Virus record (IMG/VR): IMGVR_UViG_3300027302_000005
Location: 18,458 to 82,457 of that record
DNA length: 64,000 nt
DNA from: a virus
Direction: 5' to 3' (one strand)
Notes under the pieces: model-generated
Database searches by the model: none
The model's input: only the letters and a program-made list of their open reading frames with translations
Told to the model about the DNA's origin: nothing
Shown: positions 37,115-42,921 of the stretch, in pieces
Numbering within the stretch: position 1 is the first letter of the stretch
Layout: each line of letters begins with the position of its first letter
Position numbers and translations under genes: made by a program

Positions 37115-37389
37115 CTTTCAGTTTTAGAGACGCTACCCTCTTTCCACCATTTATGATGTTGTCGGACTATATCTTCATACCGTTAGGTATGCCCCCCGTT
37201 TCGATGTCGCTTGACACCTACTGGCTTACACTCATCGGCCATAGTCTCTGCACGTTCTTAGTAGTCACTTCGTAACTCTTACCTACGCTTGGGTAGACTA
37301 AGCTTCGCTCAGGATTGCCCTCGACTTTACGTTAGGGTTTCCCTGAATTAGAGGGGTTTTTGTTTTTACAAAACAGGAGGCGCTTATTC
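37115..37389 (-). ncRNA. group I self-splicing intron (275 nt, no ORF)
   Basis: P AATTCAGGGAAA, Q AATCCTGAGCGAAG, R GCAGAGACTA, S AAGATATAGTCC; exon ends in U, intron ends in G; removal restores GGAAGSGKS. Confidence 0.93.
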
Positions 37390-37482
37390 ACCACCAAAAA
37401 ATACAATGTCGGCTTTAGAAGTAATAAACATTTCCTGCTTACGACTTTTCGGGCCAATCACTTCTTTAGTTTGTTTAGTCAT
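37390..37482 (-). CDS. terL: terminase large subunit, exon 1 (31 codons)
   Basis: AGGTGG RBS; MTKQTKEVIGPKSRKQEMFITSKADIVFFGG. Confidence 0.9.
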
Positions 37483-40029: not shown

Positions 40030-40623
40030 TTAGTCCACCACTACAGAAAGGGTTAGTTTTTGAATATCGCTGGTAGTAGAAGGGGTGATTGCTGCTTCAG
40101 TAACAAGAGCTGCATATACAACGCCGTTTGTAGTACCACTGATAGGCATAGCCGCAGGGCCACTGTTATATACAGACTGGATACCACTTCCACCACCAGC
40201 ATTACCAGTAGCGGCATTGACTAGGCTAACAACCCCAATACGTTTTGCCACATCATTCTTGTGAAGCACGAAACCTGTCTTATCAGAAATCGTAGATGCT
40301 GTCGGGTTAGCATTAAACAACCAGAGAGTGAGGTTTGTAGAGCGATTATCAATCAAATCACAAGAAGCATATTGCAGAAGCCCAGATTCAATACCTGCAC
40401 GCAATACACCATTGAGTGTAAGCAACCCACCAATACAATCATATGCGCTGTATGCGGCAGCAGTGTTGGTAATGGATGTTACAGAAACACGATTAATCTT
40501 TCCGCTATTATACGACTCAACATAAACCTGACCATTTGCTCCAACTTTAAGCTGTCGGGTTTGATCGTCCGGGTCACGGATTATGCTCATTTCATTTTCT
40601 AGTTTAGAAGCGTCAACGCTCAT
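40030..40623 (-). CDS. putative virion protein
   Basis: Beta-rich, AGGAGA RBS, late-gene strand. Confidence 0.55.
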   Translation of the reverse strand: MSVDASKLENEMSIIRDPDDQTRQLKVGANGQVYVESYNSGKINRVSVTSITNTAAAYSAYDCIGGLLTLNGVLRAGIESGLLQYASCDLIDNRSTNLTLWLFNANPTASTISDKTGFVLHKNDVAKRIGVVSLVNAATGNAGGGSGIQSVYNSGPAAMPISGTTNGVVYAALVTEAAITPSTTSDIQKLTLSVVVD

Positions 40624-40643
40624 AATCCCTATTCTCCTAATAA

Positions 40644-41312
40644 CTATGTGGCAGCACGAGGCTGCAATGTATATTTGATAAAGAATCCGCCAACTTTCAC
40701 TGTGGCGTTATCGTCTGACAAGATGTATATCTCACCCGGATTATTCAACGTCAATTCATTACCAATATAAAAGCTGGTGATTGCGTGAACCTTATATGTT
40801 CCAGAGGCTTTGTAGATAAGGGGAGAGGATGCTACAATTGTGTATGCGTTCGGGTCGCTAACACCTAAATGAAACTCTACACGAGCCTCCTGATTGTTAG
40901 CATTGGTTGTGATGTCAAACTCGATACGGAAATCAACCGTATCTCCGATTTGAAACTCACTGAAACTAAGCTGATTGGTAGATGTGTTCCAAATGTCTGT
41001 AATGTATTTTGACTGATAGACGCGATTTGTGTACTGTCCCAATCCATCATTAGTGAGCTTCTTGGCCACGTTAGGAACAACTACCAAAGGGGTAGATTGT
41101 GTTGCTGTATCGTTGTAATCAACCCACCCGTGCCATTGCCTTGAGATGTTATCAGGTAACACCATCTTTACACGTTTGTTTGTAGGGGAAACTGGAACAA
41201 ATTCATTTGGTAAATGAGCAACAACTGTGTTGCTACCATCCCCATCTACAATAACAATTTCATCATTTGAATTGACAGGCCAGCATGTCGATTCCTTAGT
41301 TGTATCAACCAT
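40644..41312 (-). CDS. putative virion protein
   Basis: Beta-rich (GDTVDFRIEFDIT), late-gene strand. Confidence 0.55.
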   Translation of the reverse strand: MVDTTKESTCWPVNSNDEIVIVDGDGSNTVVAHLPNEFVPVSPTNKRVKMVLPDNISRQWHGWVDYNDTATQSTPLVVVPNVAKKLTNDGLGQYTNRVYQSKYITDIWNTSTNQLSFSEFQIGDTVDFRIEFDITTNANNQEARVEFHLGVSDPNAYTIVASSPLIYKASGTYKVHAITSFYIGNELTLNNPGEIYILSDDNATVKVGGFFIKYTLQPRAAT

Positions 41313-41334
41313 GCTAAAATTCCTGTATTTTGAT

Positions 41335-41835
41335 TGGTGCTGTCTATCCGATTCGAACGGATGTGGGATTTCTCCGCTGGATTACCTACCTTTCCCTTTT
41401 AGAATTAGTATTCCTGTTCTTGAATGTAGGGGTGAGTGAGTGGCAATTAGGGCAGAGTATTCTTAGATTCTCTAATGTGCAATTTTCAGCATCGCCATCT
41501 ATGTGATCTATTTCTGTTAAAATAGAACCATCGGAGTGGCGCTTATCCCACCCACAGACCTCACATTGTGTCCCCCTAGTGGAATGCAGATATTTTCTTA
41601 CAAAGCTTTTTAATTGCTTGGTTTTACCTTTCCAGCCAACTAAGTTCCCAGACAACCACTCCTTAATGTTACTTTCGTATCTGTGATCCGCTTGGCAAGC
41701 ATTACTACAGTAGATGTTCTTATTCCCATAAGATTTAGGTACAAAAACATTTCCACAGCTTAGGCACGTGAAGTGGTTCATATTTTTTTTTTTCTCTATT
41801 AAAACCAGTGCAATCGGCCACTATGCGAAGACAGC
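41335..41835 (-). tRNA. interrupted tRNA (5' half 41801-41835, 3' half 41335-41385); rejoined anticodon UGU (Thr)
   Basis: Acceptor GCTGTCT/AGACAGC+ACCA, D loop AGTGGCCGA, anticodon stem CTGG/CCAG, T arm ATCCG-TTCGAAT-CGGAT. Confidence 0.85.
41386..41781 (-). CDS. HNH endonuclease inserted in the tRNA anticodon loop
   Basis: CLSC...YCSNAC Zn finger; CEVC...IDHIDGD..N...NLRILCPNCH. Confidence 0.92.
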   Translation of the reverse strand: MNHFTCLSCGNVFVPKSYGNKNIYCSNACQADHRYESNIKEWLSGNLVGWKGKTKQLKSFVRKYLHSTRGTQCEVCGWDKRHSDGSILTEIDHIDGDAENCTLENLRILCPNCHSLTPTFKNRNTNSKRER

Positions 41836-42340
41836 GAAATACCCCAGTCTTATCGGCGACGAGGTGGTGCCACGATTCAAGACCGTAGGTAATGAATCAA
41901 CAAATAAAAAACCCCAACGTAAGCCTACGCCAAGAGGGAGGGGCCATCTATCTTAAAATAAAGTGTGCTGCGCTCAACCGTTGCTTCCAGCGGTTCCATG
42001 TCAATTGCTACAATCGGTGTAGCCCACGCAGCAAAGAGAGAATGAGAGCTGCGACCGGGAAACACCCAATCCATATACACCTCTCATTATATACAAGCCA
42101 TTTAATTATTTAATTAAAATAATTGTATTCGTATGGCTTGGCCTGAATACTCGGAGTTTAGACAGGTCTTGCTAGGCTTCCCACTTCCCGTTACCTTTGA
42201 TTAAAGTGAGTTCGGCTTCTCACTAGGAATTTGTTGCACGGCGGTAGTCAGCATCCTCGCGCTGATACACTACAAGAGTGTTCTGGCGACTTTCCCAACT
42301 ACAGTCCGGCAACAAGCAGCACCACAACCTTCCGTGAATG
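41836..42340 (-). ncRNA. candidate structured ncRNA cluster upstream of the tRNA
   Basis: No credible ORF; nested stems (TTGTTGC/GCAACAA, TGCTGCG/CGCAGCA, CGGTCTT/AAGACTG). Confidence 0.55.
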
Positions 42341-42376
42341 TTATATTGTAACACAAAAGATGCTGCCTACAAGACA

Positions 42377-42404
42377 GTTATAACATACTGTTCCAGTTTG
42401 TCAA
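42377..42404 (-). promoter_or_regulatory. sigma70-type promoter for the ncRNA/tRNA locus
   Basis: TTGACA-N16-TATAAC with extended TG. Confidence 0.6.
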
Positions 42405-42408
42405 CCCC

Positions 42409-42612
42409 TTATTCACTATACTTTGTAAATTTATTTCCAAAGCAAGCCAAAGGTTCTGTTAGATGTTCCAATTGGTACTCATGCCAATCCTTCGGATGGA
42501 AAGAAGCTGTACGACAAGTAGAACACATATCTTCAGGTGTTCCATCAGGCAGCTTTCTGGCCAATTCAGCCGGGAATAGTTTGTTATCACAACAGACACA
42601 TCGTCCTGACAT
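42409..42612 (-). CDS. small Zn-finger protein
   Basis: RCVCCD...MCSTC; GGAG RBS. Confidence 0.7.
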   Translation of the reverse strand: MSGRCVCCDNKLFPAELARKLPDGTPEDMCSTCRTASFHPKDWHEYQLEHLTEPLACFGNKFTKYSE

Positions 42613-42615
42613 AAT

Positions 42616-42921
42616 TTATTTCTCCAATTTATTATTGTTGTTTTTAGACATATCGCTGTATGTCTTAACGATTTGTTCCAAGCTTCCGCTGTATTGCAAT
42701 AGCTGTTCTATCGTAACACGATAGGCTACAACAACATCTCCATCACTGCTATCTTTCCCAATCTTGCTTATTTCCAGAACTGGTCTAGAAACCAATGGTG
42801 GAGAAGGGATAGCTGTAGCAACATATACTGGCTTGCATGTAGAGCAAGCTGAAACAGTTCCGGCAAAGAACACAACACCGAGAAGAGGTTTGAAACTCCG
42901 TTTAAAACAATTTCCATTCAT
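42616..42921 (-). CDS. o-spanin (Rz1-like lipoprotein)
   Basis: Lipobox VSA|C, Pro-rich segment, adjacent to i-spanin. Confidence 0.75.
   Translation of the reverse strand: MNGNCFKRSFKPLLGVVFFAGTVSACSTCKPVYVATAIPSPPLVSRPVLEISKIGKDSSDGDVVVAYRVTIEQLLQYSGSLEQIVKTYSDMSKNNNNKLEK

Follow-up and report, generated by a model that had tools for sequence, protein, structure and literature searches.

The window, that is, the whole 64,000-nt stretch of DNA analysed here, comprises positions 18458-82457 of an 82,457-nt virus contig from IMG/VR that is rated 89% complete. On its minus strand lies a tRNA-Thr(UGU) gene whose anticodon is interrupted by an insert that is almost entirely taken up by a gene for an HNH endonuclease. 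The parts of this locus, in the order in which they would be transcribed, are as follows.

41801-41835, minus strand: 5' exon of tRNA-Thr(UGU), 35 nt, with the 5' strand of the acceptor, the D arm, the 5' strand of the anticodon stem and loop bases 32-34 (ARAGORN with introns allowed; 28-nt identity to the intact alleles L091-L093)
41386-41800, minus strand: insert, 415 nt (sequence, ORF list, ARAGORN)
41782-41800, minus strand: A-rich leader of the insert, 19 nt, with a run of 11 A (sequence)
41386-41781, minus strand: intact HNH gene, 131 aa, whose TAG stop codon forms the final 3 nt of the insert (ORF list, Pfam)
41335-41385, minus strand: 3' exon of tRNA-Thr(UGU), 51 nt (ARAGORN), with loop bases 35-38, the 3' strand of the anticodon stem and a 14-nt variable arm, followed by the T arm, the 3' strand of the acceptor, A73 and an encoded CCA

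With introns allowed, ARAGORN calls exactly one tRNA in the contig, tRNA-Thr(tgt) at 41835..41335, which is 86 nt long after excision and has its insertion point between U34 and G35, in the anticodon. In default mode the same program reports zero tRNAs in the window and zero in the whole 82,457-nt contig, and intron mode made 0 calls on 20 dinucleotide shuffles of the contig; by ARAGORN, the split gene is the contig's sole tRNA-like gene. An earlier note, made from the letters and a list of open reading frames, had placed two tRNA halves at 41801-41835 and 41335-41385 around a 415-nt insert, and had described that insert as a 19-nt leader followed by a 131-aa HNH ORF whose TAG abuts the 3' half. 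The coordinates of the halves are confirmed by the intron-mode call and the make-up of the insert by the ORF list and Pfam; the test that the note suggested, ARAGORN on the rejoined tRNA, returns tRNA-Thr(tgt) of 86 nt.

Properties of the rejoined tRNA

The rejoined cloverleaf is a tRNA-Thr(UGU) by its UGU anticodon and by its kinship to annotated genes, its T arm and acceptor being 93% identical over 29-30 nt to the annotated tRNA-Thr of Vibrio phage 424E50-1. G1-C72, C2-G71, G35, U36 and A73, which we take to be the identity set for ThrRS, are all present. In the ARAGORN cloverleaf the acceptor and T stems are entirely Watson-Crick; the T loop has its canonical form, as do U33 and A37. The earlier statement that all stems are intact holds for those two stems but has to be qualified elsewhere: the 31-39 pair is U.U, and the D stem consists of three Watson-Crick pairs and one non-standard pair. 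Several intact phage tRNA-Thr(tgt) genes, whose sequences we read by eye, also have a mismatch at 31-39, and for this reason we do not regard U31.U39 as a sign of decay.

The earlier anatomy also overlooked the 14-nt variable arm inside the 3' half, which forms a small hairpin. A long variable arm gives a tRNA a class II-like shape and is unusual for tRNA-Thr. The hairpin is nevertheless common to the intact tRNA-Thr(tgt) genes of L091-L093, L024, L028, L034 and phage GAP32 (L009/L012), which are 83-85 nt long; with the window's exons included, the set spans 83-86 nt, with hairpin variable arms of 14-16 nt. The locus thus brings to light a set of long-variable-arm phage tRNA-Thr genes, with members at the following positions.

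L091, 4757-4841: long-arm tRNA-Thr(UGU)
L024, 1034-1118: long-arm tRNA-Thr(UGU)
L034, 1865-1949: long-arm tRNA-Thr(UGU)
L028, 1148-1231: long-arm tRNA-Thr(UGU)
L009, 709-791: long-arm tRNA-Thr(UGU)

Since the source is a metagenome contig, we considered whether an assembly chimera could have produced the split tRNA, and we hold this to be exceedingly improbable: a second assembler gives the identical sequence, and the two tRNA halves pair perfectly with one another. In the Logan assembly of the probable source run, a riverine metagenome, a single 75.8-kb contig of depth 20.8 reproduces 41000-42200 without any difference; this match is a test of the assembly rather than an independent observation, because the sample is probably the same. 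At the level of contigs, the RNA run X5 covers just 41969-42145, i.e. a segment outside the tRNA.

Uninterrupted alleles and the exactness of the junction

A 25-nt core of the 5' half recurs in three other records (L091, L092 and L093), one of them a 341-kb phage in IMG/VR and the others metagenome contigs from JGI, and in each of the three the core belongs to an uninterrupted 85-nt tRNA-Thr(tgt). All three are identical to the window over 28 nt (41828-41801) that begin inside the D arm and end with loop base 34, at the junction; past the junction they continue with the same four bases that begin the window's 3' half. The acceptor, variable and T arms differ. Because these alleles run through the 28 nt and the following 4 nt without a break, exact excision of the 415 nt restores a normal loop, in agreement with the earlier proposal that the insertion lies between positions 34 and 35 and leaves an intact 7-nt loop on removal. 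The insert-less alleles that the note had suggested looking for in related phages are thus in hand, in loci from which the HNH gene is absent and in carriers that are distant phages, not sister genomes.

Junctions slid by 1-3 nt would turn the gene into a Tyr GUA or Leu UAA tRNA or a reader of stop codons; these candidates were dropped because the intact relatives carry the Thr loop across the junction. Exact-pattern scans of IMG/VR with the 5' and 3' halves (own record excluded) found no further copy of the split allele, and the scan with the 25-nt core likewise gave intact alleles only, with no second split copy. As a separate observation, run X3, from a freshwater-sediment metagenome, contains a 151-nt contig with two exact copies of the 5' part of the tRNA, 89 nt apart; the match of the first copy ends exactly at 41801, the insert junction, and the contig hints at tandem uninterrupted relatives of the tRNA.

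The HNH gene and its association with tRNA-Thr(UGU)

The 131-aa ORF scores 23 bits with the Pfam family HNH (PF01844; cut-off 21.4, E 9.2e-5). At E <= 0.001, 572 homologues were found for it, with identities of up to 93%. Every invariant Cys, His, Asp or Asn column is preserved in a 40-sequence alignment, and the start and length of the protein agree with those of its phage homologues; the leader shows no Shine-Dalgarno sequence at normal spacing.

An association with tRNA-Thr(UGU) is evident from the places in which the relatives of this gene are found. The homologues from cultured phages, at 53-63% identity, lie in tRNA clusters beside tRNA-Thr(UGU), with CB7 as the exception. The two genes are neighbours in phages that are unrelated to one another. 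In the T5-like HdH2 and MET_P1-88 the HNH stop codon abuts tRNA-Thr(tgt) or runs into its first base; in Klebsiella phage vB_Kpn_B01 the tRNA-Thr ends 15 nt upstream of the HNH start codon, and the HNH genes of the jumbo phages GAP32 and XbC2 have the tRNA-Thr just upstream. We also noticed by eye, in the Klebsiella phage vB_Kpn_B01 record (L004, ~1885-1965), an unannotated tRNA-Gly(UCC)-like gene that begins in the last HNH codons.

The same proximity is seen in metagenomic phages. Among the best 80 of 557 confirmed HNH relatives in IMG/VR, 74 loci have a tRNA and 61 have their nearest tRNA within 150 nt of the match (<=150 nt), on the same strand in 59 of these 61. Divided by similarity, the same best 80 of 557 include 16 loci with an identity of at least 46%: in nine of these an intact tRNA-Thr(tgt) lies no more than 500 nt away, and in one more, L022, the tRNA-Thr(tgt) is split. 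Of the 64 loci below 46% identity, 13 have an intact tRNA-Thr(tgt) at that distance. A maximum-likelihood tree built quickly from 86 rows and 135 columns, which has many open forks, puts the window's HNH in a 12-row group with an SH-aLRT of 88, and 10 of the 12 members adjoin tRNA-Thr(tgt).

The gene has an intact HNH (His-Me finger) domain, its homologues reside in or next to phage tRNA genes, and alleles without it exist. We assign it to a large family of putative free-standing homing endonucleases of phage tRNA clusters, in which its closest kin are those that flank tRNA-Thr(UGU) genes. That a large HNH family is tied to the genes of one tRNA points to a recognition site that can be tested.

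The insert has no ribozyme and no tRNA-like guide

A permissive Rfam search of 40500-42800 returned nothing at E <= 10 except chance snoRNA-like matches; as a positive control, the group I model RF00028 scored 90.6 bits at 37143-37399, ~4 kb away in the same window. Non-coding sequence in the insert amounts to the 19 nt ahead of the ORF, as 0 nt follow the stop codon. The empty Rfam result and these 19 nt bear out the earlier contention that there is no room for a group I or group II core. Inside the insert, neither ARAGORN nor the Rfam tRNA model at E <= 10 finds a tRNA-like part, and we saw no bulge-helix-bulge at the junctions by eye.

It had also been argued that the junctions follow group I rules. 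This is correct insofar as a U closes the 5' exon and a G closes the insert, which amounts to no more than one base in each case; the P1 put forward earlier consists of 4 weak pairs, and the fold of junction and leader is no better than that of shuffles (z 0.09). Nor did we find positive support for the earlier idea of a minimal intron removed in trans, there being no ribozyme, no guide for RNase P or RNase Z, and neither a ligase nor a splicing endonuclease in the contig. RtcB, the RNA_ligase family and tRNA splicing endonuclease (PF01974) are absent from the contig, with controls that rang for each (for PF01974, in 4 archaea); Rnl1 (PF09511) has no match in the contig, but its control also rang nowhere. 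The look-up of RtcB and Rnl enzymes recommended in the note therefore ended without a find in the contig, with the Rnl1 part of it lacking a working control. A ligase may sit elsewhere, be it in the part of the genome that is missing from this 89%-complete contig or in the host.

The positive control is a feature in its own right: an ORF-less, complete group I intron at 37143-37399 on the minus strand (RF00028, E 1.3e-21) that splits the gene for the large terminase. The terminase ORF at 35783-37090 matches positions 183-618 of PHROG 979 only, and exon 1 has its ATG near 37481 and ends in a Walker-A-like ...FFGG motif. We considered this intron as the source of a trans-acting ribozyme for the tRNA and dropped the idea because, by eye, its guide fits its own exon end and not the tRNA exon.

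Other phage tRNAs split in the anticodon loop

The note had proposed a survey for HNH homologues in other anticodon loops. We screened 83 loci (L011-L093, i.e. the 80 survey loci plus L091-L093) with ARAGORN in intron mode and kept the calls whose halves avoid ordinary tRNA calls, which left nine; further HNH-split phage tRNAs are among them.

L022, 1346-1998 (IMGVR_UViG_3300033463_000007, 232 kb): standard 75-nt tRNA-Thr(tgt) interrupted at 36|37 by 578 nt
L042, 1306-1891: tRNA-Thr(ggt) split by tRNA-Val and HNH
L061 and L063, 1400-2011: tRNA-Glu(ttc) split by HNH and tRNA-Ala; L048 and L052 are alike (by eye)
L036, 1173-2017, and L059, 1193-2016: tRNA split by HNH and tRNA-Arg(cct)
L073, 1092-1928: tRNA split by tRNA-Ala and HNH
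L069, 216-812: tRNA-Arg(tct) interrupted at 36|37 by 523 nt, of which G is the last; no HNH
L041: "intron" call of 1348 nt, doubtful

A tRNA-Thr(tgt) is also split in L022, where the insert carries an HNH ORF 50% identical to ours. Its Rfam group I score is just 14 bits (E 0.75); read by eye, the insert has a J3/4-P4-like segment, an AGACUA box and a final G. We regard it as group I-like; if real, it would be a group I intron that is mobile and lodged in a tRNA gene of a phage. The existence of such an insert in tRNA-Thr(tgt), together with the exon-final U and insert-final G of the window, raises the question of whether the window holds a degenerate form of an HNH-bearing group I intron like that of L022, from which the ribozyme has been lost. 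We consider this very unlikely: the sites differ (34|35 in the window, 36|37 in L022), the 19 remaining non-coding nt are unlike the ends of the L022 insert, and the tree places the window's HNH among free-standing genes, apart from L022. The HNH-less insert of L069 has a weak group I match of its own (17.7 bits, E 0.055).

The tRNAs of L042, L061/L063/L048/L052, L036/L059 and L073 are all split in the anticodon loop, and each has a complete, different tRNA 0-12 nt from a junction; no group I match at E <= 0.1 was found by Rfam in L061, L042, L036 or L073. The HNH proteins of the split tRNAs occupy at least six places on the tree, from which it follows that insertion into anticodon loops recurs. 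The window is the only case among these split tRNAs in which the HNH gene alone forms the insert. Between L061 and L048 the tRNA-Glu exons differ by five compensatory pairs in the acceptor and T stems, and the inserts are 93% identical. Such covariation could reflect selection on the split tRNAs; it is equally explained by one cassette homing into different pre-existing alleles, since the exons are identical next to the junction and differ at positions remote from it.

These cases bear on the possibility that the window's insert is a ribozyme-free intron, from which RNases of the host or the phage would excise the 415 nt and an RNA ligase, e.g. host RtcB, would seal the exons to give a working long-variable-arm tRNA-Thr(UGU). 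Such a route would suit the perfect exons and the encoded CCA, and it gains from the recurrence of HNH inserts at other phage tRNA anticodon loops with covarying exons, as well as from the "enigmatic" non-group-I introns, one of them in a tRNA-Thr(TGT), described for Lak phage tRNAs (PMC6784885). However, neither of the two cut sites is marked by a tRNA-like end or, by eye, a bulge-helix-bulge, the local structure is not significant, and the contig encodes no recognised ligase or splicing endonuclease; moreover, the other HNH-split tRNAs carry a whole tRNA next to the junction, whereas the window's insert has none. On this evidence we judge splicing of this kind to be decidedly unlikely.

Three further RNA matches by Rfam came to light at these loci: a c-di-GMP-I riboswitch aptamer in L022 (2728-2802, 49.5 bits), abiF RNA in L066 (751-787, 44.5 bits) and L074 (851-887, 40.3 bits), and a tmRNA-like match in L042 (1948-2036) just below the cut-off (46.4 against 47).

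Genomic context of the split tRNA

The split gene has a slot of its own, bounded upstream by a terminator-like structure.

41912-41935, minus strand: terminator-like hairpin with a T run, upstream of the split tRNA
41836-41911, minus strand: spacer, 76 nt, from the hairpin to the 5' end of the tRNA
41339-41956, minus strand: 618-nt block of terminator, spacer and split tRNA with HNH (comparison with L002)

No sigma-70-like promoter was found between the terminator and the tRNA. The two flanking proteins each retrieved one and the same relative, the 16.8-kb contig L002, which is the sole close relative found. Its flanks are ~83% identical in DNA, it carries 68 unrelated nt in place of the window's 618-nt block, and there is no HNH gene anywhere in the 16.8-kb record. 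With 41100-42100 as the query, megablast found nothing in 50,697 phage records, and a 20-kb query against the phage records gave merely short conserved pieces.

That the entire 618-nt block is missing from L002 invites a different view of the locus, in which the 5' half, the HNH gene and the 3' half with its CCA move and are expressed as one piece, the tRNA ends providing an RNase P 5' site and a protected 3' end that would stabilise or time the HNH mRNA. It would be consistent with this arrangement that the contig has no other tRNA-like gene, that CCA is encoded, and that the minimum-energy fold predicted for the 501-nt precursor contains both the acceptor stem and the T arm. Yet the shell is an ordinary tRNA-Thr down to its loop bases, like the intact, functional-looking alleles, and is therefore what plain insertion would be expected to leave. 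With a single relative, gain and loss of the block look the same; the block boundaries indicate a replacement and not a clean insertion; and the IMG/VR scans found no second composite copy. We think a tRNA-shelled mobile unit unlikely, if less so than splicing.

Discussion

Homing endonuclease genes, to our knowledge, normally persist within genes solely by way of a self-splicing intron or an intein. We think it rather probable that the gene in the window is instead a homing endonuclease gene linked to tRNA-Thr(UGU) that landed in its own target, and that the tRNA is not restored. Our findings agree with the second of the two earlier suggestions, in which a homing endonuclease is directed at tRNA DNA and puts the tRNA gene out of action, in that the HNH protein nests among enzymes adjacent to tRNA-Thr and an insert-less allele exists.

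In the sequence of events that we propose, a free-standing HNH gene that normally resides beside tRNA-Thr(UGU) would have been copied into its anticodon, between U34 and G35. The enzyme would cut the tRNA-Thr gene DNA of phages without the HNH gene, and repair off the carrier template would copy the HNH gene in; the carrier would be immune because the insert itself disrupts the target in the split allele. A precursor RNA would be made with the tRNA halves at its ends, and the HNH protein would be translated from the A-rich leader. As the insert comes without a ribozyme and without a tRNA-like guide, the tRNA would probably never be rejoined, so that the outcome would be a selfish knock-out of a dispensable phage tRNA.

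The state of the exons speaks against a knock-out: they are flawless in the acceptor and T stems, the T loop and U33/A37, and CCA is encoded. If the gene was knocked out, their health would be accounted for by a recent event. It is also odd for a dead tRNA to be kept when it is the only one of the phage and has its own terminator-bounded slot.

Whichever way the tRNA fares, the locus is of interest. Either endonuclease genes of this kind spread by breaking dispensable phage tRNAs, in the manner of a gene drive that occurs in nature and comes at a cost, or there is some way, which nobody has shown, for bacteria and phages to repair such tRNAs. Should ribozyme-free splicing turn out to be true, it would mean a protein-dependent route of tRNA splicing in bacteria, with a homing endonuclease gene as the intron. 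The locus offers a clean test case, with one tRNA, one insert and known intact alleles.

The arrangement recalls several known systems without matching any of them fully. In phage Aeh1, the HNH gene mobE reportedly interrupts nrdA, a case of "genes in pieces", and the two protein products are said to reassemble. The window resembles that case in having a free-standing endonuclease gene directly in a functional gene, with neither intron nor intein; it differs in that protein halves reassemble there, whereas the target here is a tRNA, and a tRNA nicked in its anticodon cannot decode. In the main texts of the literature searched we found no report of a ribozyme-less endonuclease gene inside the anticodon of a phage tRNA.

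Lak megaphages come near to it, with "enigmatic" introns in their tRNAs, including one in a putative tRNA-Thr(TGT) (Devoto 2019, PMC6784885). The likeness is that of phage tRNA genes bearing non-group-I inserts; unlike the Lak tRNA-Thr insert, which is short and maybe itself a tRNA (PMC6784885), the insert in the window is a protein gene with no tRNA-like part. According to a 2014 review, all phage introns known then were in protein genes. In bacteria, group I introns have been mapped in tRNAs (Williams 2020, 10.1101/2020.01.27.920355), and those of tRNA-Leu(UAA) are cut after loop base 3 (10.1101/2020.01.27.920355). The window shares with these introns the anticodon-loop site, the U before the insert and the G that ends it, and is unlike them in that, by Rfam, its insert has no catalytic core.

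The closest parallels in genomic setting are the endonuclease genes of T4 and T5. SegB of T4 is a GIY-YIG homing endonuclease in the tRNA cluster that recognises a 27-bp site around the tRNA T-loop motif and drives the inheritance of its own tRNA region (PMC2330249); the T5 HNH genes F-TflI/II/IV likewise sit in a tRNA cluster. As with T5 F-Tfl and T4 SegB, the family of the window's gene consists of apparently selfish endonuclease genes among phage tRNA genes, on the same strand and often touching a tRNA end; but the T5 and T4 genes lie between tRNAs, leaving them whole, whereas the HNH gene of the window lies inside the anticodon.
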